DNA of 58,494 nucleotides from Chromatiales bacterium (lineage in GTDB: Bacteria; Pseudomonadota; Gammaproteobacteria; Steroidobacterales; BM003): the NCBI GenBank assembly GCA_002868855.1, contig PKUM01000212.1:1-58494 (forward strand), written 5' to 3'. The notes below the pieces were generated by a model. That model did no database searches, was not told the DNA's origin, and saw only the letters and a list, made by a program, of their open reading frames with translations. A program made the position numbers and the translations under genes. Positions 11,599-29,323 of the stretch are shown piece after piece. Position 1 is the stretch's first letter, and the number at the start of each line of letters is the position of its first letter.

Positions 11599-12933
11599 TC
11601 AGTCATCCATGTGGCGAATCAGCGCGTCACCGAATCCCGAACACGTCATCAGGGTCGCGCCCGGAATCAATCGCTGCAGGTCCTTTTCGACGCCCCGCTG
11701 TCCGGGCGGATGGACGCCGGGCTTCTTTATCGCCTCCTGCAGACGCGCCAGATCGTAGGTCAACTCTTTCGCATCGATGGTATTCGAGATGCCCTTTACG
11801 ATCAGATCGGCCGCCTCGGTCCAACCGATATAACGCAGCAGCATCTCGCCCGATAGAATCAACGAACCCGGGTTGACTCTGTTCTTCCCGGCGAATCCCG
11901 GCGCTGTCCCGTGGGTCGCCTCGAATACTGCAAGCCCGTCACCGATGTTTGCACCCGGAGCGATGCCGATTCCGCCGACCTGGGCGGCAAGCGCATCCGA
12001 AATGTAGTCGCCGTTAAGGTTAAGGGTCGCAATGACATCGAAATCCTGCGGGTTTAACAGGATCTGCTGCAGAAAATTGTCGGCTATGATGTCCTTGACG
12101 ACTATCTCGCGTCCGCTGCCCGGGTTGCGAAAGCTCATCCAGGGACCGCCGTCAACTTCGCTGGCGCCAAACTCCTCGCGCGCAACTTCGTAACCCCAGT
12201 TGCGGAAAGCGCCCTCGGTGTATTTCATGATGTTGCCCTTGTGGACGATACTCACCGATTCGCGATCGTTGTCCACCGCGTACTGCAGGGCTTTACGTAT
12301 AAGGCGTTCCGATCCCTCGCGCGAGACCGGCTTGATACCGATACCCGAGCTCGACGGGTAGCGTAACTTGTGCACACCAAGCTCGGTCTGCATGAAGTGA
12401 ATGAGTTTTTTCACCTGCTCCGAGCCAGCCGGCCATTCGATACCTGCATAAATATCCTCGGTGTTCTCGCGAAACACGACCATGTCCACCGAATCGGAAT
12501 CTTTCATCGGCGTCGACACGCCAGTGAAATATCGAATCGGACGCACACAGGCATAGAGGTCGAGGGTCTGGCGGATCGATACATTGAGAGAGCGGATACC
12601 GCCGCCAATAGGCGTCGTCAACGGCCCCTTTATCGAGACGACAAACTTGCGCAGTGCATGCAATGTCTCTTCCGGCAGCCACTGGTTTTCACCGTAAATT
12701 TCGGTCGACTTCTCGCCGGCGTAGATTTGCATCCACGCGATTCGGCGTTTGTCGCCATACGCTTTTTCAACTGCGGCCTCCACCACTTTCAGCATGACCG
12801 GACTAACATCGATGCCGATTCCGTCGCCCTCTATGAACGGGATGATCGGCGTATCGGGAACGTTGAGACTGGAGTCTTCGTTCAGCGTTATCGCTTCGCC
12901 ATCGGCAGGCTCGCTGATGTGCTCGTATTTCAT
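11599..12933 (-). CDS. icd: NADP-dependent isocitrate dehydrogenase (homodimeric type)
   Basis: 444-aa ORF recognisable along its whole length as the E. coli Icd type ([37 protein letters not shown]). The C-terminal region appears to contain an extra segment. Confidence 0.95.
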
Positions 12934-13016
12934 GGTTGTTCGGTCCCTGGCAATAATGGACGGGCCGGCGGCCCCGCGGGCCGCACATGATACCAGAGCC
13001 GTGGACCCAATCGGCG

Positions 13017-15056
13017 TCAGGCGCCCGCGTGTGCCACCAGCGTCAGGAGGTCATAACTGGCAACGATCGCATCGTCCTGGTTCGTGACCTCGGCATCCCA
13101 CCGCACCTCGCCATATTCCTCTCCCTCACGCGCGGTTTTCTGCTTGCACGTCAGGGCCACCTTGATCCGGTCGCCGGGGTATACGGGCTGGATAAAACGC
13201 AGATTGTCGAGACCGTAATTGGCGAGAACCGGACCGGGATCGGGATCGACGAACAAACCGGCCGCCGCCGAGAGGATGAAATAGCCGTGCGCCACTCGGC
13301 CGTCAAAAAACGGATTGGCGGCGGCCGCCTCCTCATCCATGTGTGCGTAAAAGGTATCGCCGGTGAACTCGGCGAAATGCTCGATATCCGCGAGCGTCAT
13401 CTCGCGTTCGCCGCTGAACAGCGTGGCGCCGAGTTCCAGTTCTTCAAAATTCAACCGGAATGGATGGCGTTCGCTTTCGTTACGGCTGGCATTCGGCATC
13501 CATTTACCGGCGATCGCAGCAAGCGTATCCGGCGAACCCTGCAACGCCGTGCGCTGCATATAGTGAAGCACTCCCCTTATGCCGCCAAGCTCTTCACCGC
13601 CGCCGGCTCGACCAGGGCCGCCGTGCACCAGATGCGGCAGCGGCGATCCGTGACCGGTTGATTCCGCGGCGCAATCGCGGTTAATCAAAACCAGGCGCCC
13701 ATGCCAGGCCGCGGTGCCCAGCGCAAGTTCACGCGCGGTGTCCGTGTCGTTGGTGAATATCGAGCCGGCGAGACTTCCCTGCCCATACTTTGCCAATGCA
13801 ATCGCTTCATCGAGATCGGCATACGTGATCACCGAACTGACCGGACCGAATGCCTCGACCCGGTGTACCGGGTGGTCGCGGCCGGGGCGTTCGCAGTGCA
13901 ACAGCACCGGCGCAAAAAATGCGCCGCGTTCGGAGTCGGCGTCGACGACATCGAAACCTTCGAGCGCGCCGAAGACTATCTCTCCGGCCGCGGCAAGTTC
14001 GTTGACACGTTCGCGTACCTCGTCGCGTTGCGCGAGGCTCGCCAACGCACCCATATCGACCTCCTTGCTTGCAGGATTGCCGGTACGAACCCGGGCAAGC
14101 GCGGACTGCAATGCAGTGACGACATCGGCCGCCAGATGCTGCGGAACGATCGCGCGCCGAATGGCGGTACATTTCTGCCCCGCCTTGCTGGTCATCTCAC
14201 GCACGATTTCCTTTATATAAAGCTCGAACTCAGGGGCATCCGGTGTCGCATCCGGGCCGAGGATCGAGCAGTTCAGTGAGTCCGTTTCCGCGGTGAAACG
14301 TACCGACTCGGATATCACTCGTGGATGGGTGCGAAGCATCGTCGCGGTCGACGCCGAACCGGTGAACGCGACCACGTCCTGGCACCCGAGGTTGTCAAAC
14401 AGGTCTCCGGTCGAGCCGCAGACGAGTTGTATCGCCCCTCTTGGCAGCACCCCGGATTCGATCATGCGATGAAACACGAGTTCGGTCAGGTACGAGGTGC
14501 TGGTTGCCGGCTTGACGATCACCGGCATGCCGGCAAGCAATGCGGGAGCGAGTTTTTCGAGCATGCCCCAGACCGGAAAATTGAAGGCGTTGATGTGAAC
14601 TGCGACGCCCTCGAGCGGAACGCAGACATGCTGACCGATAAAACTCCCGCCGCGTGAAATCATCTCCGGGTTGCCATCGATATAAACCGTATCGTTGGGC
14701 ATTTCGCGCCTGCCCTTGCCGGAGTACACAAACAGCGTCGCAATTCCGCCGTCGATATCGATCCATGAGTCGGCCCGGGTGGCACCGGTGTGGGTGGACA
14801 GCGCGTAAAACTCGTCCTTGAACTCCCCGAGAATCTTGGCGAGCGCTTTCAGCATCAACGCCCGTTGATGAAACGTCATCGCCCGCAGTACGGGCCCGCC
14901 AACCTCACGCCCGAAGTCGAGCATCGCCGCAAAGTCGAGACCGGCCGAACTGGACCGGGCCAGCGGTTCGCCGTCAACCGCACTGTGCAGCAATGCACCG
15001 TCATCACTACCACTGTGCCACTCGCCATAGGCAAAGCTTCTCAATACTTTACTCAT
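13017..15056 (-). CDS. paaZ: bifunctional oxepin-CoA hydrolase / 3-oxo-5,6-dehydrosuberyl-CoA semialdehyde dehydrogenase
   Basis: 679-aa ORF. The N-terminal aldehyde dehydrogenase domain has an N-terminus close to E. coli PaaZ (..GEW.SG....L.....GE.L......GLD....[16 protein letters not shown]). The C-terminal MaoC-like hotdog domain carries [11 protein letters not shown]. Confidence 0.9.
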
Positions 15057-15096
15057 TTATTTTCCGACAGTTATGCTGTTTTATTTGCGTAATTTA

Positions 15097-16212
15097 TTAG
15101 ACTTTTGACGCTTGGCGATTCGCGACAAACCGTTCCAGCACATCGACCATACGTCGATTTTCGTCCTCAATCCCGATTGTGGCCCGGAGCGCTGCCGGCA
15201 GACCGTAGTTGGCAACTGGACGCAGGATGATCCCGGCGCCACGCAGCGCCTGATCCAGCGCGACCCGCTCTTTCTCGTCCGCACAATGGAATAACAGAAA
15301 ATTGCCGGCACTCGGCGTCACCTTGAATCCCAGCGCCGCAATCCTCTCCTCAAGCCATGGCAGCCAGCGGTCATTGTGGTCGCGCGCTTTGGCAATATGC
15401 GAGGCATCTCCCAACGCCGCAATCGCGGCCAGCTGTGCCGGCGTCGACACATTGAATACACCGCGAACCCGATGCAGCACCATCGCAACCTCGCGCGGAC
15501 AACGGGCCCAACCTACGCGAAGCGCCGCAAGACCATAGATCTTGGAAAAAGTGTGCAGAACGACCGTGTTGCCATCGACAGGCTGCACCAACTCTGCACC
15601 GAAACTGTAGTCGGGCGTGTCGATGTACTCGCAATAGGCCGCGTCCACGACCAGTAGCACATTCTCCGGAAGGCCCTCGCGCAGACGGTGCAATGCGGCG
15701 CGGTCGATCACCGTTCCGGTCGGATTGTTCGGATTGGCGATGAATACGATTCGGGTCTGCGGTGTCACCGCCGCAAGCATCGCGTCGACGTCCGCGGTGT
15801 ATTCGACCTCCGGCACCCGCACCGGTGTGGCACCGCAAGCCAGTGTGGCAACGTGATACATGATGAAGGCATGCTCGGTGAACACCACCTCATCGCCGGG
15901 CCCGGCATAGGCGCGGCACAAACCATCTATAAGTTGCTCGGACCCGGTACCGCATACGACCTGGTCGCTCGCCAGTCCATTCGCCCGGGCGAGCGTCTCG
16001 CGGAGTTCGATTGCTGCCCCGTCCGGGTATCGCTCGAGTTCGGCGCCCGCCTTCATATAGGCGTCGAGCGCGGCAGGACTCGGTCCCAATGGCGACTCGT
16101 TGGACGACAGCTTTGCAGGGTGATCGAAGCCTGGCAGCTTCGCTTCACCGGCGATATAGGGAACGATCTCGAGGACGTGCGGATTAGGCGCGACAATAGG
16201 CATAGAATTCAC
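15097..16212 (-). CDS. HisC-family (class II) PLP aminotransferase, histidinol-phosphate/aromatic type
   Basis: 371-aa ORF with the PLP-lysine motif FSKIYGLAALRVGW and the NPNNPTG motif. Confidence 0.8.
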   Translation of the reverse strand: MNSMPIVAPNPHVLEIVPYIAGEAKLPGFDHPAKLSSNESPLGPSPAALDAYMKAGAELERYPDGAAIELRETLARANGLASDQVVCGTGSEQLIDGLCRAYAGPGDEVVFTEHAFIMYHVATLACGATPVRVPEVEYTADVDAMLAAVTPQTRIVFIANPNNPTGTVIDRAALHRLREGLPENVLLVVDAAYCEYIDTPDYSFGAELVQPVDGNTVVLHTFSKIYGLAALRVGWARCPREVAMVLHRVRGVFNVSTPAQLAAIAALGDASHIAKARDHNDRWLPWLEERIAALGFKVTPSAGNFLLFHCADEKERVALDQALRGAGIILRPVANYGLPAALRATIGIEDENRRMVDVLERFVANRQASKV

Positions 16213-16245
16213 TTTAAATTGATTTAGTTAGTATCTGTTTTATAG

Positions 16246-17445
16246 CTATTTATAATTCTCAATAGTCTCAACCAGAATGGTGAGAAAGCGGTTGGTCTGA
16301 TACGCATCAAGGACACGATGATCGATTGTCAGGCTGATATAGCACATTGGCCGAACCTGGATGACGTCTTCGCCGTCTAATTCGCGGACGACGACCCGCT
16401 TGGTGATTTTGCCAACGCCGAGAATTGCGCTTTGTGGCTGGTTAATAATGACGGGCGTTGCGATCAGGCTGCCACTTACCCCGTGATTGGAAATGGTAAA
16501 TGTGCCGCCGCGAACATCTCCCGGCGCCAGCGCATTGTCGCGGGCCTTGCGTGTCAGCAGATCGAGGCCCGCGGAGATGTCAAACAAATTCAGGTCCTGA
16601 ACCCGGCGCAGGACCGGCACGATAAGACCCTTGTCATCGAGCGCGGTACCGATGCCTATGTTGATGTCATCGAATAGCTCGAGCGCATCATCGTGCCAGC
16701 TACTATTGACCTCCGGCACCGCGGCAAGCGCCCGGGCAGCGGCTTCAAGCAGATAGGCGGTCACGGTCAGTGATGCGCCTCGGGCAGCGAAGTCGGCCTT
16801 GTGCGCACGACGATGGTTCATTACCGCACTCATGTCTGCCTCGAACACGGCTGTCACGTGCGGCGCGGTTTGCATCAGGCTTTCGACCATATGCCGCGCG
16901 ATCGACAGCCGCATGTTGTCATGCGGAACACGTCGGCTCTCACCCGCGCCCGCGGCGCGCCCGACGGCGGCGCTCTTCGCCGTCTTGCGAGATGCAAGAT
17001 GGCGTTCGATGTCGCGCGCGGTCACCCGTCCATCGCGCCCCGTTCCATCGATATCAGAACAATTGAGCTGATGCTCCTTGAGCATTCGGCGCACCGCCGG
17101 GCTCAGCCTCGGCCGCTGTTCCGGAGTCGCGGCAGCATCAGCGCCGGCTGCGGCCGCGGCGCTGGTGTCCGCGCTCTCCGGACATTCCCCTACCGATGCT
17201 TCGGTCCGAATTCGGGCCACAACGTCATCGGGCAACACTTCCTGACCGGCTTCTTTCAGCAACTCGACCAGCACACCGTCGGCGGGAGCAGCGAGTTCCA
17301 CCACGACCTTGTCTGTTTCAAGTTCGGCGATAGGCTCGTGTGCGCGGACCGGGTCATCTGCCTGCTTTAGCCACCGAGACAGAACAGACTGGGTGCCCTC
17401 CAGACTCTCGGCGTCGAGTCGCACATCGATCAAACCGGTCATCAA
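16246..17445 (-). CDS. 2-oxoacid dehydrogenase E2 (dihydrolipoyl acyltransferase)
   Basis: 399-aa ORF. It has a single lipoyl domain (ELETDKVVVEL), a peripheral-subunit-binding domain (SPAVRRMLKEH....IDGTGRDGRVT..DI) and a catalytic DHRVLDA motif. Its start abuts the E1 stop with no gap. Confidence 0.85.
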   Translation of the reverse strand: MMTGLIDVRLDAESLEGTQSVLSRWLKQADDPVRAHEPIAELETDKVVVELAAPADGVLVELLKEAGQEVLPDDVVARIRTEASVGECPESADTSAAAAAGADAAATPEQRPRLSPAVRRMLKEHQLNCSDIDGTGRDGRVTARDIERHLASRKTAKSAAVGRAAGAGESRRVPHDNMRLSIARHMVESLMQTAPHVTAVFEADMSAVMNHRRAHKADFAARGASLTVTAYLLEAAARALAAVPEVNSSWHDDALELFDDINIGIGTALDDKGLIVPVLRRVQDLNLFDISAGLDLLTRKARDNALAPGDVRGGTFTISNHGVSGSLIATPVIINQPQSAILGVGKITKRVVVRELDGEDVIQVRPMCYISLTIDHRVLDAYQTNRFLTILVETIENYK

Positions 17446-19557
17446 TCAGACCTGACACAACGCGCCGATGGCCGCGGCGATATCTTCCTCGCCCGGGACC
17501 ACCGCATCGAGCAGCACCGGACTGTGCGGACTCGGCACGTCGGCTACCGCAAGCCTGCGAACAGGCGCATCGAGATCGAAAAAGCACTCGTCCGCTACTC
17601 GCGCGGCTATCTCGGCGCCAAACCCGGCCGTGAGCGTATCTTCGTGAACGATCAGGCAACGCCGGGTGCGGCGGACCGACTCGAGCACGGCCTCGTCATC
17701 CCATGGGCTAAGTGTACGCAGATCGATCAATTCTGCGTCCGCCTTCACCCGCTGCAGCGCCGCCTCGCAACGTGGCACCATCGCGCCCCAGGTAATAACC
17801 GAAATCTCGCTACCCTGACGCAACGTGGCCGCCTTGCCGAACGGCACAACGTAGTTGTCGCCCGGGTACGATCGCCGTGCCCACGCAAGATCGAGCAGGT
17901 TGCGATGCTCGAAAAAAATGGTCGGATTGTTGTCGCGTAATGCAAATCGCAACAGGCCAACCGCGTCTTCGGCATTAGAAGGCATTGCCACCTGCCATCC
18001 CGTTGCATGAACCCATTTCACCTCGTTGCACTGACTGTGCCACGGGTCGCCGCATTTAAAGAATCCTCCGGCCACACGCACAACCATCGGCGCCGCAAAA
18101 CGGTTGGCGGTTCGCCAGCGCATCGTGCCGCAATCGTTGAGTTGCTCCTCGGCCGGGTCGGCATATTTGCGAAACTGCAACTCCGGAACCGGCAACAAAC
18201 CCGCCGCGGCCATGCCGAGCGAACGCCCAATGATGCCCTCCTCGGAAAGACTGGTATCGAAGACCCGGTCGGAGCCATGTTTCTCAGCGAGCCCGAGCGT
18301 GACCGCATGAACACCACCTTTCGCGGCGACGTCTTCGCCAAACACCATCATCCGCGCGTTAAGCGCCAACTCGGCATCCAGCGTCCGCCGCACCGCGGTA
18401 ACCAGGTTGATTCGGCCCGGCTCTGTGGCGGCTTCCGTCGTGGCAGGCCCGAAGTCATGGCCCGAAGGTCCAAGTCCGCCTTGTTGCTGCATGACGATAT
18501 CGCCGTGCTCGTCTCGCTCGCTGAACACGAACCGCGTTATCCCGGCCGGGTCCGGCAACGGCCGAGCGAGTGCCGACTCCAGCGCGCCCTCGACATCGGC
18601 GTTCGCGCGATTTTCAAGGTCGCGCCACTCAGTAGCCGTCAAGCTGTTGGGCACAAGGAAACGCCGCAGTTTCGGCAGCGGGTCACGCGCCCGCTCCGCC
18701 GCGATCTGTTCTTCGCTTTTGTATGCCTGAGTATCCTGCCCCGAATGGCCACACAGACGCGGCACCGTCAGGCGCACCAGTGCCGGCCCGCCGCCCGCGC
18801 GAATCTGGCCAATCGCACTGGCGATGGCGTTGGCCGCATCGCGAGCCTCGGTACCGTCGCCATCGAAGATCGCCAACCCCGAAAAAGATTCGAGGTTCGC
18901 GGCAATGTTTCGCCCAGGGGTTTGCATGTCGGAGGTTACCGAGATGCCATAGCCGTTGTCCTCGATAAAAAACAACATTGGCAACTGCAGCGTCGTTGCG
19001 ATCGTGAGCGCCGACCAGAATCCGTTCGTGGCCACCGACGCATCGCCGCCAAGCGCAACCGCCAGCGCGCCGCGCCACGACTCGTCCTGCAACGTGTCGC
19101 GATGATAAAGAATGGACTGGGCCCAGCCGGCCACCGGGGTATATTGCGCGCCAACGCCGCCACTCATCGGCAGAACCGTTGCCGCTTCATGACCCGGCAT
19201 GTTGTAGACGACACCGATATCCCGTCCATCGCTGAACGAACCCGAGCGCATCATTGGCCCGGCTATCGCATCTTCCAGAGCCAGCCCCAGCGACAACATG
19301 AACGGACGGGATCGATAGTAGCCGCTGGCCGCGTCATGTCGATGATCGAGGAGTTGCCCGAGCAGGACCTGGCCCAGTTCGTGACCGCGCGCCGAGAACT
19401 GATACAGAATTTTTTTCTCTTTCAGCAGCCGCTCTTCTTCGAGCTTGTCTACCGCGCGGGACAGAAGGCACTTGTACGCGACCTGGCGCCAGTCGATCGC
19501 CGCCGCCGCCGCGTTGTCAAAAGTCTGTAGTCGACCAAAATCGCTGGCGGTGGCCAT
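17446..19557 (-). CDS. 2-oxoacid dehydrogenase E1 with fused alpha and beta subunits (TPP-dependent)
   Basis: 703-aa ORF. The N-terminal half has the TPP motif GDAS...IEDNGYGIS. The C-terminal half is E1-beta/transketolase-like (FGEDVA..GGV...T.GL..KHG..RVFDT.LSEEGIIG). Confidence 0.85.
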   Translation of the reverse strand: MATASDFGRLQTFDNAAAAAIDWRQVAYKCLLSRAVDKLEEERLLKEKKILYQFSARGHELGQVLLGQLLDHRHDAASGYYRSRPFMLSLGLALEDAIAGPMMRSGSFSDGRDIGVVYNMPGHEAATVLPMSGGVGAQYTPVAGWAQSILYHRDTLQDESWRGALAVALGGDASVATNGFWSALTIATTLQLPMLFFIEDNGYGISVTSDMQTPGRNIAANLESFSGLAIFDGDGTEARDAANAIASAIGQIRAGGGPALVRLTVPRLCGHSGQDTQAYKSEEQIAAERARDPLPKLRRFLVPNSLTATEWRDLENRANADVEGALESALARPLPDPAGITRFVFSERDEHGDIVMQQQGGLGPSGHDFGPATTEAATEPGRINLVTAVRRTLDAELALNARMMVFGEDVAAKGGVHAVTLGLAEKHGSDRVFDTSLSEEGIIGRSLGMAAAGLLPVPELQFRKYADPAEEQLNDCGTMRWRTANRFAAPMVVRVAGGFFKCGDPWHSQCNEVKWVHATGWQVAMPSNAEDAVGLLRFALRDNNPTIFFEHRNLLDLAWARRSYPGDNYVVPFGKAATLRQGSEISVITWGAMVPRCEAALQRVKADAELIDLRTLSPWDDEAVLESVRRTRRCLIVHEDTLTAGFGAEIAARVADECFFDLDAPVRRLAVADVPSPHSPVLLDAVVPGEEDIAAAIGALCQV

Positions 19558-19693
19558 GCTGTGCTCCCCGGTATTTTGTGATCAGTAAATCCTATACCGG
19601 TTCAGTGGGTACATTGTGCCTTTCTTCACATCTTCGGGACTATTTATGGCAATATAATTGCTCAATTAGGAAATTAATCGGTATTTTATTTCT
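19558..19693. promoter_or_regulatory. divergent AT-rich control region between E1 and the Lrp-family gene
   Basis: 136-bp AT-rich spacer between divergent start codons. This geometry is typical of Lrp/BkdR-type regulators and their target operons. No individual site was assigned. Confidence 0.4.
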
Positions 19694-20170
19694 ATGCAAT
19701 CGAATCTCACCCTGCCCGATGTAGAAATACTCGAAGTCCTGCAGGCAGACGGGCGTATCTCTAATCGCGACCTTGCCGCAAAGGTGGCCCTCTCGCCATC
19801 GCCGTGCTGGCGCCGGGTACGCATGCTGGAGGAAGACGGCGTCATAGAGCGCTACGTGGCACTGCTCGCTCCCGAAAAACTGGATCTCGCGGTGATTGCC
19901 TTCGCCCATGTTTCGCTAACCGACCACCACCCGGAGTCGGTTGAGGAATTCGATGCCGCCGTCGACCGCGCCCCCGAGGTCCTCGAGTGCTACATGACCA
20001 GCGGCGAACACGACTACATGTTGAAAGTGATCACTGCAGACATGGCGAGCTACGAACATTTTCTTTCGGAAAAAATGCTGCGCCTGCCATCGGTACGAAC
20101 GGTAAATACCGGGTTCGTCCTCCGCCGTAAGAAATACACGACCGCGTTGCCTTTGCCGCATCCAGCCTGA
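19694..20170 (+). CDS. Lrp/AsnC-family transcriptional regulator
   Basis: 158-aa ORF with an N-terminal HTH (LDVEILEVLQADGRISNRDLAAKVALSPSPCWRRVRMLEEDGVI) followed by a RAM/AsnC-C domain. Confidence 0.85.
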   Translation: MQSNLTLPDVEILEVLQADGRISNRDLAAKVALSPSPCWRRVRMLEEDGVIERYVALLAPEKLDLAVIAFAHVSLTDHHPESVEEFDAAVDRAPEVLECYMTSGEHDYMLKVITADMASYEHFLSEKMLRLPSVRTVNTGFVLRRKKYTTALPLPHPA

Positions 20171-20180
20171 CGGTTGGTGT

Positions 20181-21245
20181 TCAGACCTGATCGTAATCCA
20201 CGGTGACGTTGTCGCTGCAGGGCCGCGCCTGACAGGTCAATATGAAACCCGCCTCGACTTCCCAGGGCTCGAGCGCATGATTGACGTCCATTTCGATTTT
20301 GCCCTCCACCAGTTGGGCGCGGCAGGTTGCGCATACCCCGCCCTTGCATGAAAACGGCAGTTCGAGTCCGTGCCGCAAGCCTGCCTCCAGCACCGTTTCG
20401 CCACTCGTCGCAATCGGGAATTGCCGGCGCCGACCATCCACTATGGCAGTAACCGTGGCGGATGCAGTGGTGGCCGCCGCTCGTGCCGCCGCCGGCTTTG
20501 CTTTCGCGCTTCGGAATCGTTCGAAGTGCACGCGATCTTCGGCCACATCGAGCGCGGCGAGCGTCGCTCGCACATCGTCGATCATGCTGCCGGGACCGCA
20601 GACGTACCAGTTGTCCACTCGCTGCGTATCGCAAAAACTCTCGATCAGCTTGCGGCAATGGCGGGCATCGATCCGCCCGTTCAGCAACTCCACGTCCTGA
20701 ACCTCACCGCTCAACACGTGGTACAACGAAAAACGCTGCAGATAGCGGTCCTTGAGATCTGCAAGTTCGCGCCGGAACATCACCTCTTCGGCACTACGGT
20801 TGCCATAGAACAGCACAACCTGGCTCTCGGGTTCGCGTTGCAACAGGGTTTTGACTATCGAGAAAATCGGCGTAATCCCGCTGCCCGCCGCAAACGCAAC
20901 ATGAGTGCGCGAGGACGACGGATCCGGCTGAGCGACAAAATGCCCGGTCGGAGTCATGACCCGCAGTCGCTGTCCTTTGGCCAGGACGCTATTGGCGAAA
21001 TCTGAAAAACGCCCGCCCGGATGGCGTTTGATACCGACCCGCAGACTCTGATCGTCGACGCTGCTACAGATCGAGTACGGCCGGCGAATGCGCTTGCCGT
21101 CGATCTCCGCCTCCAACGTGATGTGCTGACCCGGCAGGTAGGAAAACTCATTGCACAAATTCTCGGGAACGGCGAAACGAACGCACACCGCGTGATCGGT
21201 TTCAGGCCGCACATCGTCGATTTCGAGCTCGTGAAATTTAAGCAT
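20181..21245 (-). CDS. paaE: phenylacetyl-CoA 1,2-epoxidase reductase subunit
   Basis: 354-aa ORF. It has FNR-like FAD/NAD domains (RPYSICS, AGSGITP) and a C-terminal plant-type 2Fe-2S domain (CKGGVCATCRAQ). Confidence 0.9.
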   Translation of the reverse strand: MLKFHELEIDDVRPETDHAVCVRFAVPENLCNEFSYLPGQHITLEAEIDGKRIRRPYSICSSVDDQSLRVGIKRHPGGRFSDFANSVLAKGQRLRVMTPTGHFVAQPDPSSSRTHVAFAAGSGITPIFSIVKTLLQREPESQVVLFYGNRSAEEVMFRRELADLKDRYLQRFSLYHVLSGEVQDVELLNGRIDARHCRKLIESFCDTQRVDNWYVCGPGSMIDDVRATLAALDVAEDRVHFERFRSAKAKPAAARAAATTASATVTAIVDGRRRQFPIATSGETVLEAGLRHGLELPFSCKGGVCATCRAQLVEGKIEMDVNHALEPWEVEAGFILTCQARPCSDNVTVDYDQV

Positions 21246-21251
21246 GATGGG

Positions 21252-21758
21252 TTAGAGGCACTTGAAGTAGTCGAAGGGTTCGGCACAGGCGCCGCATTGG
21301 TAATGGGCCTTACAAGGAGTAGAGCCGAACTCGCTGACGCGGCTGGTTGCCGTTGAGCCACAGCGTGGGCAGGCGATAGCAAGCCCGACGCCACCGAACA
21401 ACCCACGCCCGCGCGCGGCGCTGGCTGCAGGCGGGGCAATACCGTACTCGCGTAACTTGCGGCGGCCGTCGTCGCTGATCCAGTCGGTGGTCCATGCCGG
21501 GCTGATCACGGTGCGAATCTCGGCATCCGGATGGCCGGCCTCGTCCAGAACCTCACGTACGCTTTGCTCGATCATCTCGGTGGCCGGACAACCCGAGTAG
21601 GTCGGCGTGATGGCCACGACGGGATGGCCCTCATCGAAAACATCGCGAACGATACCGAGATCGACAATGCTGATAATCGGAATTTCCGGATCGGGCACCG
21701 ACTGCAGCAACCGCCATATCTCTTCGGTGGCAGTCGTTTTCCCACGCGTGCGGGTCAT
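21252..21758 (-). CDS. paaD: phenylacetyl-CoA epoxidase subunit PaaD
   Basis: The ORF is open to 22040. The ATG at 21758 lies just after the paaC stop and gives a 168-aa protein with VPDPEIPIISIVDLGIVRDV and a C-terminal Cys cluster. The longer form would overlap paaC. Confidence 0.85.
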   Translation of the reverse strand: MTRTRGKTTATEEIWRLLQSVPDPEIPIISIVDLGIVRDVFDEGHPVVAITPTYSGCPATEMIEQSVREVLDEAGHPDAEIRTVISPAWTTDWISDDGRRKLREYGIAPPAASAARGRGLFGGVGLAIACPRCGSTATSRVSEFGSTPCKAHYQCGACAEPFDYFKCL

Positions 21759-21768
21759 GAATGCTGAA

Positions 21769-22545
21769 CTACCATGATGCCCCGGGGTAGGCGCGTTGCA
21801 GAAACTGCATCTCTGCCAGCATGTAGCCGAGGTGCTCGGTATGGCGGCCGTGGCGCCCGCCACTGGCCATCCCGTCGTCAGCGGGCCGGGTAATCGTGGC
21901 TTCGCGAAGAATACGGTCGAGTTGGTTATCCCATTCGCTGCGCAGCACAGCCGGGTCAGCCGCAATCCCCTCGGCGACCAGCGCGGTCTCGACGTCGTCG
22001 GTTTCGAAAAGTTCACCGGTATACCGCCAGATGCGATCAAGCGCGGCCTGCACTCGCTGATGGCTTTCGGCAGTGCCGTCGCCTAGCCGTACGAACCAGC
22101 CCGCGCTGTGCTGCAAATGGTAGCGGCTTTCCTTGGATGCCTTGGCGGCAATTTCTGCAAGCCGGCTGTCGCCTGAGCGCTGCAACTCCTCATACAGCCC
22201 GCACTGGTACAGATCGAAAAGACATTGGCGCACGATCGTGAATGCAAAATCACGGTTCGGCAGCTCGACCAGCAGCAGATTGCGAAAGTCCATGCCGTCG
22301 CGCAGAAACGCGAGGTCGTCTTCGCTGTGCCCGGCTCCCTCGAGTTCGGCCGCGTACGACAACAACATGCGCGCCTGGCCAACCAAATCGAGCGCGAAGT
22401 TGACGAGCGCCATTTCCTCTTCGAGCGCCGGCCCCTTGCCGCACCACTCTCCGAGACGCTGACCCAGGACGAGCGCGTTATCGGCGAGCCGCAACACATA
22501 TTCGAGGCGCGGCTCGGCAGCACGGACATCGATACTGCCGGTCAC
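21769..22545 (-). CDS. paaC: phenylacetyl-CoA epoxidase structural subunit PaaC
   Basis: 258-aa ferritin-like ORF in the conserved position between paaB and paaD. It overlaps paaB by 4 nt. Confidence 0.9.
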   Translation of the reverse strand: MTGSIDVRAAEPRLEYVLRLADNALVLGQRLGEWCGKGPALEEEMALVNFALDLVGQARMLLSYAAELEGAGHSEDDLAFLRDGMDFRNLLLVELPNRDFAFTIVRQCLFDLYQCGLYEELQRSGDSRLAEIAAKASKESRYHLQHSAGWFVRLGDGTAESHQRVQAALDRIWRYTGELFETDDVETALVAEGIAADPAVLRSEWDNQLDRILREATITRPADDGMASGGRHGRHTEHLGYMLAEMQFLQRAYPGASW

Positions 22546-22829
22546 AACACCTCGACCTCGTCAGGGATGTCGTAAAAAGTGGGATGGCGATAAATCTTGT
22601 CGTCAGCCGGATCGAAGTAGGCGTCACGCTCGGCCGGGTCGGAAGCATGGATCGCTGCTGAGGGTACGACCCAGATACTGACGCCCTCCTGGCGCCGGGT
22701 ATAGAGATCGCGCGCGTTCTGCAGCGCCATTTGCTGGTCGGCCGCATGCAGGCTGCCAACGTGCTTGTGACTCAATCCGGTGCGCGAGCGAATAAACACT
22801 TCCCAAAGCGGCCAGTCCTGCTCTGCCAT
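22542..22829 (-). CDS. paaB: phenylacetyl-CoA epoxidase subunit PaaB
   Basis: 95-aa ORF with WPLWEVF.R...G..H.H.GSLHA, characteristic of PaaB. Confidence 0.9.
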   Translation of the reverse strand: MAEQDWPLWEVFIRSRTGLSHKHVGSLHAADQQMALQNARDLYTRRQEGVSIWVVPSAAIHASDPAERDAYFDPADDKIYRHPTFYDIPDEVEVL

Positions 22830-22840
22830 CGAGTTTCTCC

Positions 22841-23869
22841 TCAGGCGGCTTGCGCCGCGGCTCTCTTAGCTTGCTTGCGGGCATAAGCGCGTGCCGCATC
22901 GCGCACCCATCGCCCCTCTTCGTGGGCGCTGCGACGCGCTTCAATCCGCTCCCGGTTACATGGGCCGTTTCCTTTGAGGACGGCAAAAAACTCTTCCCAG
23001 TCGATCGCTCCGAAACGGTAATGACCGCTTTCTTCGTCAAAAGCGAGGTCGGGATCCGGCACCTCAAGACCGAGGTATTCGGCCTGCGGCACCGTGGTGT
23101 CGACGAATTTCTGACGCAGTTCATCGTTGCTGAAGCGCTTGATCTTCCAGGCCATAGACTGCGCAGTGTGGCGCGATTCATTGTCGGACGGGCCGAACAT
23201 CATTAGCGATGGCCACCACCAGCGATTCAGCGCATCCTGGGCCATGCGCTTTTGTTCATCGTTGCCACGGCACAGCGCAAGCATCAACTCGTAGCCCTGG
23301 CGCTGATGAAAACTCTCTTCCCGGCACACCCGCACCATCGCCCGCGCATAGGGACCGTAGGAGCAACGGCACAACGGGATCTGATTCATGATGGCGGCGC
23401 CGTCAACGAGCCAGCCGATCGCACCTACGTCAGCCCAGGTCAGCGTAGGGTAGTTGAAGATACTCGAGTATTTCGCACGGCCGTCGAGCAATTGATCGAC
23501 CATGTCGGCGCGCGAGGTGCCCAGCGTTTCCGCTGCGCTGTAGAGATACAGGCCATGTCCGGCCTCGTCCTGGACTTTGGCCATCAGGATCAGCTTGCGT
23601 TTCAGCGTAGGGGCACGGCTGATCCAGTTGCCCTCCGGCAGCATACCGACTATCTCGGAATGGGCATGCTGCGATATCTGTCTGACCAGCGTCTTGCGGT
23701 AAGCCTCCGGCATCCAGTCGCGCGGTTCGATTTTCTCTTCGCCGTCGATTCGAGCCTGGAATGCGGCTTCGCGCTCACGATCGGCATTCGCGTGCTCTGT
23801 ATTGTCCTGGCTGCCCTGCTGATCCAGTCCCTGCGTATACATGACGGCTATCCCGTAATTGGAAAACAC
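22841..23869 (-). CDS. paaA: phenylacetyl-CoA epoxidase catalytic subunit PaaA
   Basis: 342-aa ORF close to E. coli PaaA ([66 protein letters not shown]). The true start may be the second ATG at 23842. Confidence 0.9.
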
Positions 23870-23919: not shown

Positions 23920-25125
23920 TCAGACCCGCTCCAGAAGCATCGCAATACCCTGCCCCACCCCGATACACATCGTGCAGATGGCATAACGGGCATCGCGATC
24001 CGCAAACTCGTGGGTCGCAGTCGTAACCAGCCTGGCGCCACTCATCCCCAGCGGATGACCGAGTGCGATCGCGCCGCCATTCGGGTTTACATGTTCTGCA
24101 TCGTCGCCGAGACCCAGCCCCCGCAGTACCGCGAGGCTTTGCGCGGCAAACGCCTCGTTGAGTTCGACGATACCGACCTCCTCGAGCCGCAACCCGGTAT
24201 GCACCAGCAACTTGTTGACCGCCGGTATCGGACCTATCCCCATGATCCGTGGGCTAACTCCAGCGACCGTGGTCGCGACGATACGCGCCCTCGGTTCGAG
24301 TCCGTGCACCGCGGCGGCGGTCTCCGAGGCGATCAGCAACGCACAAGCGCCATCGTTGACTCCCGATGCGTTGCCCGCTGTCACCGTGCCATTTTCGCGA
24401 AACGGAGTTCCGAGCCGGGCCAACTGCTCGGGGGTCGTCGATGGTCGCGGATGTTCATCGTGGGTCACGACAACAGGATCTCCTTTCCGCTGCGGCAGGG
24501 TGAGCGGCACGATCTCGCGGGCGAGGCGGCCCGACTCGATCGCACGTTTGGTCTTCTGCTGGCTGCGCCACGCAAATGCGTCCTGATCGTCGCGGCTGAT
24601 GTTGAACTCCGCGGCGACGTTTTCCGCGGTTTCCGGCATCGAGTCGATACCATATTGTTTCTTGAGCAACCGGTTGACGAATCGCCAGCCGATTGTCGTG
24701 TCATAGATTTCCGCGCGCCGACTGTACGCGGTATCGGCCTTGGGCATCACCAGCGGTGCGCGAGACATTGACTCGACGCCACCCGCAACAACGAGCTCGG
24801 CCTCACCACATCGTATGGCACGCGCCGCCATCGCGACTGCATCCAGGCCAGATCCACATAATCGGTTCACTGTCACGCCGCCGACCTCGACCGGTAACCC
24901 AGCAAGCAATCCGGCCATACGCGCCACATTACGATTATCCTCACCGGCCTGGTTGGCGCAGCCGTAGATCAGATCTTCGATCCGGCTGGCATCGAGGCCG
25001 GGATTGCGCGCCACCAATGCCGAGATTGGTATAGCCGCAAGATCATCGGCCCGTACCGCGGCGAGAGCCCCGCCATACCGCCCGATCGGCGTGCGGATCG
25101 CATCGCATACGAATGCATCAGTCAT
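23920..25125 (-). CDS. paaJ: 3-oxoadipyl-CoA / 3-oxo-5,6-dehydrosuberyl-CoA thiolase
   Basis: 401-aa thiolase-II ORF with active-site regions NRLCGSGL, NASGVNDGA and CIGVGQG. Confidence 0.9.
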   Translation of the reverse strand: MTDAFVCDAIRTPIGRYGGALAAVRADDLAAIPISALVARNPGLDASRIEDLIYGCANQAGEDNRNVARMAGLLAGLPVEVGGVTVNRLCGSGLDAVAMAARAIRCGEAELVVAGGVESMSRAPLVMPKADTAYSRRAEIYDTTIGWRFVNRLLKKQYGIDSMPETAENVAAEFNISRDDQDAFAWRSQQKTKRAIESGRLAREIVPLTLPQRKGDPVVVTHDEHPRPSTTPEQLARLGTPFRENGTVTAGNASGVNDGACALLIASETAAAVHGLEPRARIVATTVAGVSPRIMGIGPIPAVNKLLVHTGLRLEEVGIVELNEAFAAQSLAVLRGLGLGDDAEHVNPNGGAIALGHPLGMSGARLVTTATHEFADRDARYAICTMCIGVGQGIAMLLERV

Positions 25126-25573
25126 TGCAAGATTCCCCCTCGCGGATCACGGCCGCATCGGTGCTCACAGTTTCCCCGCGAAACAACGCGATCAGGCGGG
25201 TTTTGTCATCGCGCAATTCGACATCGTAGCTGGACTTGCGGCGACCATGGAACCGCTCCATCGCACTGGCAATAACTACCGTGCCCGCTTCAGCCGAGCG
25301 CAGGAAGTCGATAGTGCAAATCGATGCGACGCTCAGCTTGTTGCGGCTGTTGCTGGCATGCGCCAGCGCTGTGTCCGCGAGCGCAAAGAGAAGACCACCA
25401 TGGCAGACGCCGTGGCCATTCAGCATTGCCGCCGTCACTGCCATCGCCAGTTCGCAATGGCCCGGGCCGCACTCGAGAATTCTGATTCCGAGCATCTGTG
25501 CCGCGCGATCGCGGCTGTGCAGCGATTCGCTGCACTGATGCGCGAGTCGTTCCTGCTGCGTGGGGGCGTTCAT
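25118..25573 (-). CDS. paaI: hydroxyphenylacetyl-CoA thioesterase
   Basis: 151-aa hotdog-fold ORF with NGHGVCHGGLLFALADTA. It overlaps both neighbouring genes. Confidence 0.85.
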   Translation of the reverse strand: MNAPTQQERLAHQCSESLHSRDRAAQMLGIRILECGPGHCELAMAVTAAMLNGHGVCHGGLLFALADTALAHASNSRNKLSVASICTIDFLRSAEAGTVVIASAMERFHGRRKSSYDVELRDDKTRLIALFRGETVSTDAAVIREGESCND

Positions 25574-26358
25574 CGACCTTTGAAGACAGCCGCTCGTTTT
25601 TGCTGGAACGCGGCTACGCCCTCATCGAAATCCTCGGAGAATCCTGCCTTGCGTTGCAAATCGCGCTCGAGATCGAGTTGCGTATCCAGGTCGTTACCGA
25701 GCGACGCATTGATGGCTTTTTTGATCAGCCCGAGACCGTGAGTCGGCGCAGCCGCGAGATGCCTGCTGAGCGCCGCGGTCTCCCCCGCCAGCGCCTCGTC
25801 GTCGACACAGCGCCAGATCATCCCGTATTTTTCCGCCTGTTCGGCCGTAACGGTATCGCCGAGCAACGCAAGCCCCATGGCGCGGGCGTGACCCACCAGT
25901 CGCGGAAGCGCCCACGTCCCGCCGGCGTCCGGAATCAAACCGATTTTGCAAAATGCCTGAATAAACCTGGCCGAACGCGCGGCAAGGACCAGGTCGCATG
26001 CCAGGGCGAGGCTCGCGCCGGCCCCGGCGGCAACGCCGTTTACCGCCGCGACAACCGGCATCGGGAGGTTCTTGAAACGACGGATCAGCGGGTTGTAATT
26101 GTTGTCCAGGCTTTCACCGAGGTCCATTTTTTGCGTTGCAGCGGGATCGCGCTCGTTCAGGTCCTGGCCCGCGCAGAAACCCCTGCCGGTACCGGTGATC
26201 ACAAGGCAGCGAACGGACGCGTCACTCTCTACGATATCCATCGCTGCACGCAGCTCCGCGTGCATCCCGGCGGTAAAGCTGTTCAGGCTGTCCGGCCGGT
26301 TCAGCCTGATCGTTGCGATGCCATCGGCGGATTCGAAAACTATGGTGTCAAAACTCAT
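25570..26358 (-). CDS. paaG: 1,2-epoxyphenylacetyl-CoA isomerase (crotonase family)
   Basis: 262-aa ORF. The segment AVNGVAAGAGASLALACDLVLAARSARFIQAFCKIGLIPDAGGTW closely resembles E. coli PaaG. Confidence 0.8.
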   Translation of the reverse strand: MSFDTIVFESADGIATIRLNRPDSLNSFTAGMHAELRAAMDIVESDASVRCLVITGTGRGFCAGQDLNERDPAATQKMDLGESLDNNYNPLIRRFKNLPMPVVAAVNGVAAGAGASLALACDLVLAARSARFIQAFCKIGLIPDAGGTWALPRLVGHARAMGLALLGDTVTAEQAEKYGMIWRCVDDEALAGETAALSRHLAAAPTHGLGLIKKAINASLGNDLDTQLDLERDLQRKAGFSEDFDEGVAAFQQKRAAVFKGR

Positions 26359-26459
26359 GCCCGCTCCCTGTGCCGGCTATGTGCCGGGGTCGTGCCAACC
26401 GAGACGCGAAGCTTAACGGAATTGTCAGCCCGATAAAAAAATGCGGTGACGGTTAACAG

Positions 26460-27431
26460 TCAAGCTTCAGAACCGCCAAACCGTATTGCCAGCCCGGCAC
26501 CCGCCGGCGGCATCTCGCCATCGATCGCCTGCAGGTTGCGATCGATCCAGTCTTCTGACGCCGGCACCAGGCGACGATAGATGGCGGCACCAAGATCGTA
26601 TGCGCGTTGCGCTGGCCAGTGCGCCGGCCACAGCTCCCGCGGCAGACGCGGATCGCGCAGAACCGCGCGCCGGTACTCATGGACAAGCTGGATACGGGCC
26701 AGCAAAGACGTCCTCGGGTCCGGTTTGCGCAGTCTTGCCAAGGCCGCATGAAGCGGTGAGAAACGCTCGATAAACGCGGTGTAACGTGTGCCGACCTCGG
26801 CCAGCCGGAGCCCCTGTTCCAGCAGCCCGCGTAGCGCCTGCGGCATTGTCTCGCCACCCGTCGTGGCAACCCAGTCGATCATCAGCGCACCGTCTACACC
26901 CTGACGCAATGCCGCAAGCGCTTCGCAATCGCGACGCGGGCTGGCCATCAGTCCCGGAGCAATCTGCGTATAGCCAAGCCATCTGAATTCGCGTTTTAGA
27001 CGCTCGCGCCGGTTCGCCGGTCCACGCAAAAATTGCACTAGACTCCACTTCCCGTCCCAATCGGTTTGCGGCGGGCCGTAAATTTTTCGCGCCGCGATGC
27101 CAAATCGGGATGCGCCGGCGTGGCTGAATCGATAGTAGCTCTGACGTCCGATCTTTTCGGACTCGAGCCAGCCCTCCGCCACCAGCCTGTGAACCGCGGT
27201 GCGCACAAGCCGCTCGCTCAGGCCGAACGGTTCGAGCAATCTGATCAGGCTGCCGAGCCAGACCTCTCCGCCACGCGCGGCGACGACGTCGCCAAATACC
27301 GTGACGATAAGTGAACCCGCGCGCAGCGGCCGCTGCGCGGCGAAGCGCGCCAACTCATGCGCACTCAACGTCTCGAACCGCGTGAGCCGTGTTTTGGGCC
27401 GCGCGGTGCAATGCCGACCGGGCTTGGTCAT
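26460..27431 (-). CDS. paaX: phenylacetic acid degradation operon negative regulator
   Basis: 323-aa ORF with the PaaX-family N-terminal signature SLIVTVFGD......GG.VWLGSLI.LLEPFG..ERLVRTAV.RLV.EGWL. Confidence 0.85.
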   Translation of the reverse strand: MTKPGRHCTARPKTRLTRFETLSAHELARFAAQRPLRAGSLIVTVFGDVVAARGGEVWLGSLIRLLEPFGLSERLVRTAVHRLVAEGWLESEKIGRQSYYRFSHAGASRFGIAARKIYGPPQTDWDGKWSLVQFLRGPANRRERLKREFRWLGYTQIAPGLMASPRRDCEALAALRQGVDGALMIDWVATTGGETMPQALRGLLEQGLRLAEVGTRYTAFIERFSPLHAALARLRKPDPRTSLLARIQLVHEYRRAVLRDPRLPRELWPAHWPAQRAYDLGAAIYRRLVPASEDWIDRNLQAIDGEMPPAGAGLAIRFGGSEA

Positions 27432-27484: not shown

Positions 27485-28300
27485 ATGGATCTTGCCGCCT
27501 ACACTTCGAATTTTGCCAGCCTGCGCTTCGCGTCCCCCAGCGAACGTGTCCTTGAGATCATTCTCGGCTCCGGCGAGCGCCGCAATGCAGCCGATGCTGA
27601 TATGCATCGCGATCTCGCGCTGGTCTGGCGCCAGGTCGATGCCGACCCGGGCGTCGCCAGTGTCGTCGTTCGGGGTGAGGGTAACAGCTTCTCGTCGGGC
27701 GGCGATTTCACACTGATTCAGGAGATGATCGACGACGACCATGCCCTGCAACGCGTTTGGAAGGAAGCCCGCGACCTTGTCTACAATCTCATCAACTGCA
27801 GCAAGCCGGTGGTTTCAGCCATCCAGGGACCAGCCGTTGGAGCCGGTCTTGCCGTAGCTTTGCTGGCGGATGTCAGCATCGCTGCACCCGACGCGAAAAT
27901 CCTCGATGGGCATACCCGCCTCGGAGTAGCCGCCGGTGACCACTCCGCCATTATCTGGCCGCTGCTCTGCGGCATGGCCAAGGCAAAATATTATCTGCTT
28001 ACCAACGAACCACTGAGCGGCGAGGAAGCCGAACGTATCGGGCTGGTGTCGCGGTGCGTAGCGGCGGAACGGCTCATTGACGAAGCACGGCGCATCGCAA
28101 TGAAGCTGGCCGCGGGAAGCCCGAGCGCCCTGCGTTTTACCAAGTACGCGCTCAACAACTGGCTGCGTATGGCCGGACCGACTTTCGATACGTCGCTGGC
28201 TCTGGAGTTCATGGGTTTTCGATTCGAGGACATTCGAGCGGGTCTCGAGGCGGTGCGCAACAAATCCGCGGCCGAATTCGACCGCGACTGTCCGCTTTAG
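27485..28300 (+). CDS. crotonase-superfamily (enoyl-CoA hydratase/isomerase) protein, atypical
   Basis: 271-aa ORF with the crotonase oxyanion region ([25 protein letters not shown]). By eye, the positions of the two catalytic Glu of canonical hydratases are not Glu. Confidence 0.7.
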
Positions 28301-28333
28301 TCTGCTTCAACCAAACGGTCAAAGGGATTCGAG

Positions 28334-29323
28334 ATGTACATGAATGCGATGGTCATGGAGAAACCCGGCCAGCCTCTGGTGCACAGGTCCCTGCCCGTCC
28401 CGCAACCGGGACCGGGCGAGGTTCTGATTCGAGTCAAAGCGTGCGGGGTATGCCGCACCGATCTGCATATCGTCGACAACGAACTCGATCAACCAAAGCT
28501 GCCTCTGATACCCGGCCACGAGATTGTCGGGGTTGTCGCCAAAACCGGGGAGGCCGTCACAGAGCTTGCGACAGGCGATCGGGTCGGAGTCGGATGGCTG
28601 GGACACACCTGCCAGAATTGTGATTTCTGCAGCCAGAACCACGAGAATCTGTGCGCGGCGGCGCGTTTCACCGGATATCAAATCGATGGCGGATACGCCG
28701 AGTACAGCGTTGCCGAGGCGCGCTATTGTTTTCCGATTCCGGATTGCTACAGCGACACCGAAGCGGCACCGTTGCTGTGCGCCGGCCTGATCGGATTCAG
28801 AACCCTGAGGCTGGCCGGACCTTGTGAGACGGTCGGCATCTACGGATTCGGTGCTGCCGCCCACATCGTCGCCCAGATCGCGCGCTACGAGGGCAAGCGG
28901 GTCTATGCCTTTACCCGACCCGGTGACAGGATTGCGCAGGATTTTGCAATGTCACTGGGTGCCGAGTGGGCCGGCGACTCCAGCCAGACACCACCAGTCG
29001 AGCTCGACAGCGCCCTGATCTTCGCCCCAGCGGGGGAACTGGTACCGGTCGCCCTGTCGCGGTTGCGCAAGGGCGGAACCGTGGTATGCGGTGGGATCCA
29101 CATGAGTGATATCCCGTCATTTTCCTACGACCTCTTGTGGCACGAGCGCAGCGTCTGCTCGGTTGCCAACCTCACTCGGCGCGACGGGCGCGACTTTTTT
29201 CAAATTGCTCCACGCGTCCCGGTACGCACGTCGGTCACCCCCTACTCGCTTCAGGAGGCTAACGCCGCGCTGGCCGACCTACGCGCCGGGAATCTCAGCG
29301 GAGCTGCTGTTTTAAATATATAA
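28334..29323 (+). CDS. zinc-dependent medium-chain alcohol dehydrogenase
   Basis: 329-aa ORF with catalytic-zinc region CGVCRTDLH and GHEIVG, a structural-zinc cluster C..C..C..(7)C, and a GxGxxA Rossmann motif (IYGFGAAAH). Confidence 0.85.
   Translation: MYMNAMVMEKPGQPLVHRSLPVPQPGPGEVLIRVKACGVCRTDLHIVDNELDQPKLPLIPGHEIVGVVAKTGEAVTELATGDRVGVGWLGHTCQNCDFCSQNHENLCAAARFTGYQIDGGYAEYSVAEARYCFPIPDCYSDTEAAPLLCAGLIGFRTLRLAGPCETVGIYGFGAAAHIVAQIARYEGKRVYAFTRPGDRIAQDFAMSLGAEWAGDSSQTPPVELDSALIFAPAGELVPVALSRLRKGGTVVCGGIHMSDIPSFSYDLLWHERSVCSVANLTRRDGRDFFQIAPRVPVRTSVTPYSLQEANAALADLRAGNLSGAAVLNI

Follow-up and report, generated by a model that had tools for sequence, protein, structure and literature searches.

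The 58,494-nucleotide contig PKUM01000212.1 of a Chromatiales bacterium (GenBank assembly GCA_002868855.1), analysed over its full length and referred to here as the window, carries a 2-oxoacid dehydrogenase module embedded in a cluster of paa genes, which encode the catabolism of phenylacetyl-coenzyme A (phenylacetyl-CoA). The module consists of a fused E1 alpha/beta chain (17446–19557, minus strand) and an E2 dihydrolipoyl acyltransferase (16246–17445, minus strand), and is accompanied by a HisC-family class I/II pyridoxal phosphate-dependent aminotransferase (15097–16212, minus strand) and a divergently transcribed Lrp/AsnC-family regulator (19694–20170, plus strand). We consider it probable, at roughly 0.65, that this block specifies a phenylpyruvate dehydrogenase complex with a catabolic role, along with the aminotransferase and the Lrp-type regulator that belong to it, a reading that draws on the comparison of sequences and gene neighbourhoods. 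The path from phenylalanine through phenylpyruvate to phenylacetyl-CoA had been suggested in a preliminary description of this DNA. As far as genomics goes, it is supported by a complex that is additional to the branched-chain 2-oxoacid dehydrogenase (BCKDH) of the genome, by recurrent linkage to paa genes, by an aminotransferase resembling the structure 4R2N, and by the lack of any other route that we could find in the genome.

In the proposed pathway, the HisC-like aminotransferase would convert L-phenylalanine to phenylpyruvate, which the fused E1, using thiamine diphosphate (ThDP), would decarboxylate, loading the phenylacetyl group reductively onto the lipoyl-lysine of E2. The E2 would then pass this group to CoA to give phenylacetyl-CoA, and a shared lipoamide dehydrogenase, either the one on contig C213 beside sucAB or the one on contig C81 beside the pyruvate dehydrogenase (PDH) E2 gene, would re-oxidise the lipoamide and generate NADH. 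Phenylacetyl-CoA formed in this manner could flow straight into PaaABCDE-G-Z-J, without passing through free phenylacetate or paying the ATP (to AMP) that PaaK consumes, while PaaK, encoded elsewhere, would stay the entry for external phenylacetate. The Lrp-type regulator, for its part, may bind the inverted repeat GCAAT-N3-ATTGC and control the E1-E2-aminotransferase-paaZ operon in response to an amino acid.

A fused E1 and its E2, set apart from the branched-chain complex

The E1 is a single chain of 703 amino acids in which the Pfam domains E1_dh (PF00676), Transket_pyr (PF02779) and Transketolase_C (PF02780) are all detected above cut-off. Its two halves align to the Thermus E1b structure 1UM9, the alpha half to 1UM9_A (1e-28) and the beta half to 1UM9_B (1e-67). 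The ThDP motif (GDA...EDN) falls on catalytic positions of this structure, as do a histidine of the alpha half (in CGHSGQD) and a glutamate and a histidine of the beta half (in LSEEG and WHSQ), and all 88 family members compared carry these catalytic motifs unchanged. By its domains, its ThDP motif and its catalytic His/Glu/His set, the protein is an E1 of the heterotetramer-type (alpha/beta) 2-oxoacid dehydrogenases. The 399-amino acid E2 is equally recognisable by its class: one lipoyl domain (PF00364) with the lipoyl-lysine in a TDK motif, an E3-binding domain (PF02817), and an acyltransferase domain (PF00198) with the catalytic motif DHRVLDA, which carries the His/Asp pair of the DHRxxDG type. 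It scores below the cut-off of each named E2 equivalog. In the translated sequences, the catalytic motifs of both E1 and E2 are thus intact. The contig has no match to an E3, as the preliminary description had stated; two lipoamide dehydrogenases above the TIGR01350 cut-off are available elsewhere in the genome, one adjoining sucAB on C213 and the other adjoining the PDH E2 gene on C81.

The genome (3.6 Mb in 337 contigs, 100% complete by marker genes) contains five E2 genes. A split, canonical BCKDH, with adjacent genes for E1 alpha, E1 beta and E2, lies on contig C206, and its E1 alpha matches the Pseudomonas putida BCKDH alpha subunit (1QS0_A) with 538 bits (E value 1e-160). The remaining complexes are sucAB-lpd on C213, the PDH E2-lpd pair on C81, and a fifth E1/E2 set on C175. 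When compared with alpha subunits of BCKDH or PDH, the window E1 scores in its alpha half at only ~1e-11 (about 44–48 bits), so that it is the C206 copy, rather than the window E1, that fits as the BCKDH orthologue. These matches make it unlikely that the block is an ordinary BCKDH that happens to be inserted in the paa cluster, the alternative raised when the locus was first described. In the case of the beta half, the best solved matches include BCKDH beta subunits (~1e-65). A FastTree phylogeny built from 88 family members places a very long branch, of 3.7 changes per site, between the fused E1 family and the BCKDH outgroup, and motifs near the cofactor that are invariant in the family read differently in BCKDH (GGVGAQYTP against SGNLTTQVPQ, EDNGYGIS against VNNQWAIS, and FKCGDPWH against GIRGGQTH). 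Taken together, these comparisons show that the fused E1 belongs to an orthologous family distinct from BCKDH.

Homologues of the window E1 number in the thousands at 64–68% identity, mostly from Steroidobacteraceae and other Gammaproteobacteria with a few in Allosphingosinicella, and source databases label them ‘2-oxoisovalerate dehydrogenase E1 component’ or ‘pyruvate dehydrogenase’. When 400 genomes of the class were surveyed with the E1 protein (E<=1e-100), the genome itself was the sole match, a floor value with two candidates scored per genome; the survey shows a patchy distribution of this E1.

The first of these labels, and the place of BCKDH proteins among the relatives, bear on a rival explanation, namely that the genome has in this complex a second dehydrogenase for branched-chain (or other aliphatic) 2-oxoacids, served by an Lrp of the BkdR kind and adjacent to paa genes by accident. 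With the known BCKDH systems (P. putida bkdR-bkdA1A2B-lpdV; Thermus thermophilus E1b, 1UM9) the window shares enzyme class, domain set and a divergent Lrp gene, the latter mirroring the bkdR-bkdA1 arrangement generally known from Pseudomonas. For both E1 halves, the best relatives of known structure come from the BCKDH group, the beta half matching BCKDH beta structures closely as described above, and AzlCD-type branched-chain amino acid exporter genes adjoin the module in Marinobacterium. Unlike in these systems, however, the alpha and beta parts of the window E1 are fused, no E3 gene is linked, and the genes that accompany the module are those of the paa pathway instead of liu or ivd. Moreover, the genome already possesses a canonical BCKDH orthologue, the alpha half of the window E1 is far from BCKDH alpha, linkage to paa genes has been kept through many rearrangements, and in several lineages the module forms one unit with a phenylalanine-type aminotransferase and paaZ. 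We therefore regard a second branched-chain enzyme as quite improbable.

Three further observations concern the other complexes. The bkd operon on C206 (locus L090; 17575–18846) has no adjoining Lrp/BkdR gene. A homogentisate 1,2-dioxygenase gene lies ~3 kb from this operon on the same contig. Finally, the fifth E1 alpha/beta and E2 set (L091) is at the end of C175, which cuts the E1 alpha gene, and its proteins score below every equivalog cut-off.

Recurrent linkage of the module to paa genes

The preliminary description had recommended checking whether this gene order recurs in other paa clusters; the module does recur beside paa genes, in varied orders. We mapped the window proteins onto 87 related loci. 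The E2 gene follows E1 in 83 of them, and 71 have a divergently oriented Lrp gene no more than 400 bp from E1. Genes of the paa pathway were found within 10 kb in 53 of the 87 loci, and in 38 of the 49 that are well flanked (>=5 kb upstream and >=7 kb downstream), counts that are not independent, since the loci come mostly from Steroidobacteraceae and are kin.

The arrangement of these genes varies considerably, and about eight distinct combinations of module and paa genes can be told apart. Downstream of E2 we observed paaX in reverse orientation followed by paaABCDE-G-Z, or paaK-paaX-paaA..., or paaK-paaA..., or paaA... directly, as well as a reversed paaEDCBA-Z. Elsewhere paaABCDE-G-I-K-Z precedes Lrp-E1-E2. 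On a 2-Mb contig that encodes an E1 68% identical to that of the window, the order is E1-E2-aminotransferase-paaZ-G-I-J-ABCDE, and the window’s own order is common to two close relatives. Orthologues of the aminotransferase come after E2 in four of the loci (L006, L007, L045 and L094).

A linkage that survives so many rearrangements argues for a functional tie between the module and the paa pathway. This pathway has no 2-oxoacid intermediate, and the simplest link to the paa genes is a 2-oxoacid dehydrogenase that would yield the pathway’s substrate.

The conserved pairing of E1 with E2 also bears on a different view of the chemistry, in which E1 acts mainly as a non-oxidative phenylpyruvate decarboxylase that releases phenylacetaldehyde, to be oxidised and then activated by PaaK, with E2 in a minor or different role. 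Consistent with this, PaaK is encoded in the genome, paaK adjoins E2 in 19 relatives, and the window includes a zinc alcohol/aldehyde dehydrogenase gene (28334–29323). Yet E2 follows E1 in nearly all of the related loci, across a zero-base junction in the window, and it retains its lipoyl-lysine, its E3-binding domain and its catalytic His/Asp, features that would be hard to explain in an unused protein. For this reason, we judge a decarboxylase-only E1 very improbable.

In one Steroidobacteraceae locus (L092), a small Rieske/UCR_Fe-S_N-like gene (13473–14138) is located between E2 and paaX.

Proposed phenylalanine entry and the range of 2-oxoacids

The aminotransferase (371 amino acids; PF00155) belongs to the HisC family, in agreement with its first description, and passes the hisC equivalog cut-off narrowly (TIGR01141, 288.8 bits against 276.6). 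A higher-scoring hisC (329.9 bits) is found on contig C93 inside a hisD-hisC-hisB-hisH-hisA cluster, and the window enzyme is best seen as a paralogue of the biosynthetic hisC that probably acts on a different substrate. Its nearest solved relative, near full length, is 4R2N (1.9e-53), deposited as a ‘putative phenylalanine aminotransferase’. This likeness to the HisC-family phenylalanine aminotransferase 4R2N/4R5Z is one of sequence only, and the window copy also exceeds the hisC cut-off. The role that we propose for it is that of a phenylalanine:2-oxoglutarate aminotransferase.

We also looked for other ways in which the organism might degrade phenylalanine. In its own genome, no indolepyruvate/phenylpyruvate decarboxylase exceeds the cut-off (best score 88 bits against 554), and neither IorA, nor a fused indolepyruvate oxidoreductase, nor a phenylalanine 4-hydroxylase was found; a homogentisate dioxygenase is present. 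Because no decarboxylase, Ior or phenylalanine hydroxylase is recognised in a 100%-complete assembly, the E1/E2 complex would be, within the reach of the models used, the sole connection that can be recognised between phenylalanine and the paa pathway or any ring-cleavage pathway.

In textbooks and databases, aerobic phenylalanine catabolism runs through homogentisate, through phenylacetaldehyde and phenylacetate with PaaK, or, in a few cases, through a ferredoxin-dependent indolepyruvate oxidoreductase. The classical route, made up of phenylpyruvate decarboxylase, phenylacetaldehyde dehydrogenase and PaaK, brings phenylalanine carbon into the phenylacetyl-CoA catabolon just as the window complex would, but it takes three enzymes, has an aldehyde and an acid as free intermediates, and spends ATP. 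In Phaeobacter, the step is taken by an indolepyruvate:ferredoxin oxidoreductase (Ior1), of a family unrelated to the window E1 and E2. In net terms, this Ior route (Ior1 in Phaeobacter; IorAB or PPFOR in anaerobes) likewise turns phenylpyruvate into phenylacetyl-CoA and skips free phenylacetate; unlike the window complex, it depends on ferredoxin and Fe-S clusters and does not use lipoamide. Phaeobacter has been described as converting phenylalanine to phenylacetyl-CoA without free phenylacetate (PMC7497051).

The name ‘phenylpyruvate dehydrogenase’ (PMC10685826), which in the context of bacterial pathways we found in the literature for PglB/PglC only, refers to a PDH-like pair of proteins in Streptomyces pristinaespiralis that has been proposed to convert phenylpyruvate to phenylacetyl-CoA for phenylglycine biosynthesis within the pristinamycin cluster (PMC7089894), an activity described as ‘suggested’ (PMC7089894, PMC10685826). 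Like PglB/PglC, the window E1 is a PDH-like ThDP enzyme of the E1 alpha/beta type, the likeness being at the level of the E1 class only. PglB/PglC differ in being biosynthetic, in forming two separate E1 subunits without a dedicated E2 in the operon, and in having a phenylacetyl-CoA dioxygenase and a thioesterase, not PaaABCDE, as linked partners. PglB/PglC and the Phaeobacter conversion are chemical precedents in favour of the proposed step. A database pathway tool is reported to list an E1-like, two-subunit ‘phenylpyruvate decarboxylase’, which our literature search did not recover and to which we give no weight. The same search found no description of a catabolic, paa-linked complex of the lipoamide type.

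Against this background, we somewhat favour the broader idea that a widespread lipoamide-type phenylpyruvate dehydrogenase, built from a single-chain E1, an E2 and a housekeeping E3, provides a third, energy-conserving aerobic route for phenylalanine into the phenylacetyl-CoA catabolon, with its own amino acid-sensing Lrp and a conserved GCAAT-N3-ATTGC operator, and with the same promoter driving PaaZ in this genome. If this is true, an NAD-linked phenylpyruvate dehydrogenase would close gaps in the pathways reconstructed for many Proteobacteria of soils and sediments and would change the ATP/NADH accounting of phenylalanine degradation. It would also be a natural catabolic counterpart to the PglB/PglC step of phenylglycine engineering, and a candidate enzyme for supplying phenylacetyl-CoA directly to pathways that lead to tropone or penicillin-G precursors. 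Some carriers are in culture, Steroidobacter agaridevorans (locus L040) being one, which makes the idea directly testable.

In its original form, the proposal leaned in part on a ‘missing’ paaK, an argument that did not hold up. The gene is absent from the window and is found on another contig (G000:C127:36027-37286), where it scores above its cut-off (719 bits against 646), and paaK directly follows E2 in 19 of the 87 related loci. Among five relatives without a cluster-linked paaK, three have an unlinked copy above the cut-off, one has a copy just under it (592 bits), and one, a metagenome-assembled genome (MAG), has none. The presence of paaK on C127 and beside E2 in those 19 loci points to a complex that, in this lineage, would complement the ligase, not replace it, the complex being the entry for phenylalanine and PaaK the entry for phenylacetate.

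The C127 gene itself (L001, L005) is solitary, beside unannotated open reading frames and a ParA-like gene. Its reading frame has ~88 extra N-terminal residues, and the start is probably internal.

Besides the kinship among the related loci, several points weigh against a dedicated phenylpyruvate dehydrogenase. Substrate specificity is not readable from sequence, and the motif differences from BCKDH mark a distinct family and not a particular substrate. A score above the hisC cut-off leaves histidinol-phosphate activity possible for the aminotransferase, and with PaaK present a phenylalanine route is not needed to explain how the paa pathway is fed. In the literature, we found no enzyme assay, mutant or expression datum for any member of the fused-E1 family. 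Further points of this kind come from loci in which the module stands apart from paa genes. The well-flanked loci without paa genes fall into one clade of the tree, comprising Sedimenticola, Marinobacterium, Pokkaliibacter and Oceanospirillaceae. In Sedimenticola the module is present and PaaA is not, and two Oceanospirillaceae genomes (a Marinobacterium MAG and an Oceanospirillaceae MAG) have the module and only weak PaaA-like matches of ~70 bits. The loci with the module in genomes that lack a PaaA above cut-off are L023/L088 (Sedimenticola), L013 and L020 (Oceanospirillaceae) and L087 (Marinobacterium lacunae). Because the module occurs in Sedimenticola and Oceanospirillaceae without a PaaA above cut-off, feeding PaaABCDE cannot be the sole role of the fused-E1 family, and other arylpyruvates may be accepted.

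These genomes are the main reason to consider a broad arylpyruvate (or general amino acid-derived) 2-oxoacid dehydrogenase, which would act on phenylpyruvate, 4-hydroxyphenylpyruvate, indolepyruvate and perhaps others, and for which the paa link would be one of several uses. In Marinobacterium lacunae, two genes within 5 kb of the module encode a general transaminase of aromatic amino acids (TyrB type, 560 bits against a cut-off of 377) and an ELFV dehydrogenase whose closest match is tryptophan dehydrogenase, and a paaX gene lies 10 kb away. These neighbours keep aromatic 2-oxoacids as likely substrates and count for the phenylpyruvate reading as well. In Pokkaliibacter, a class III aminotransferase neighbours the module. 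The paaI gene of the window’s cluster would fit as well, in that PaaI would clear dead-end hydroxyphenylacetyl-CoA. On the other hand, most lineages keep the module specifically beside paa genes rather than beside genes for the catabolism of homogentisate or indole, and the window copy lies in one apparent operon with paaZ. A broad arylpyruvate enzyme is therefore a real but clearly less likely explanation than a catabolic phenylpyruvate dehydrogenase.

Apparent operon layout, the Lrp-type regulator and the surrounding paa genes

The genes for the aminotransferase, E2, E1 and the Lrp-type regulator occupy exactly the coordinates given for them in the preliminary description, and their placement between paaZ and paaE was confirmed; all paa genes of the window exceed their NCBIfam equivalog cut-offs. 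On one side lies paaZ (13017–15056, minus strand), encoding the oxepin-CoA hydrolase/3-oxo-5,6-dehydrosuberyl-CoA semialdehyde dehydrogenase (TIGR02278, 1014.6 bits against a cut-off of 562.8), and on the other, beyond the Lrp gene, paaE (20181–21245, minus strand), also above its cut-off, as the last gene of paaABCDE. The order on the minus strand is E1-E2-aminotransferase-paaZ with tight spacing: the TTG start codon of E2 abuts the stop codon of E1 with no base between them (17445/17446), as had been noted, E2 and the aminotransferase are 33 bp apart, and the aminotransferase is separated by 40 bp from paaZ, the final gene of the unit. The Lrp gene is divergent from E1 across a 136-bp spacer (19558–19693) that is AT-rich as originally reported (62% A+T, in a window of ~60% G+C) and would form the divergent promoter/operator region, and it is convergent with paaE at a gap of 10 bp.

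A terminator scan of positions 12800–20400 returned 9 sites where shuffled sequences gave 7.1 expected, every one of them within coding sequence, leaving no evident terminator between the genes. The run from E1 to paaZ looks like a single operon, driven from the spacer shared with the Lrp gene. Since the Lrp gene and paaE converge 10 bp apart, the genes from paaG to paaE and those from E1 to paaZ would be separate transcription units, and on this layout the ring-opening enzyme PaaZ is predicted to depend on the E1 promoter.

The regulator (158 amino acids) has the two parts of an Lrp/AsnC-family protein, an N-terminal winged helix-turn-helix (PF13412/PF13404) and a C-terminal RAM/AsnC ligand-binding domain (PF01037). 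The structures nearest to it are 2P5V, 3I4P and 2GQQ (E. coli Lrp), with values of about 1e-37 to 1e-34 for 2P5V and 2GQQ. Within the spacer, at 19649–19661, we found a perfect inverted repeat, GCAAT-N3-ATTGC, which has one exact match in the 58-kb window. Of 72 related loci, 20 have the same repeat in the spacer between Lrp and E1 (L014, L015, L021, L035, L052-L054, L058, L066 and L076 among them), although these spacers are otherwise unalignable, and it is often extended to TGGCAAT-N3-ATTGCCA. In addition, the 8-mer ATATTGCC is found in 33 of the 72 spacers. We infer that GCAAT-N3-ATTGC is a candidate operator of the Lrp-type regulator.

The surrounding cluster comprises paaABCDE, paaG, paaZ, paaJ, paaI and paaX, all above their cut-offs. 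The genes for the phenylacetyl-CoA 1,2-epoxidase, paaABCDE (20181–23869, minus strand), score above the cut-offs of TIGR02156, TIGR02157, TIGR02158, TIGR02159 and TIGR02160. Upstream of them and co-directional lie paaJ (thiolase), paaI (thioesterase), paaG (isomerase) and paaX (repressor), together spanning 23920–27431 on the minus strand, with paaX (26460–27431) as the most upstream gene of the paaX-G-I-J-A-E run. Canonical paaF and paaH were not recognised in the window. Divergent from paaX, at 27485–29323, are a crotonase-family gene (PRK07327 type) and the zinc alcohol dehydrogenase gene, which may or may not substitute for paaF/paaH. Lastly, the longest open reading frame for paaD (21252–22040; 262 amino acids) overlaps paaC by ~270 bp; the PaaD match begins at residue 115, which places the start of paaD probably near 21770.

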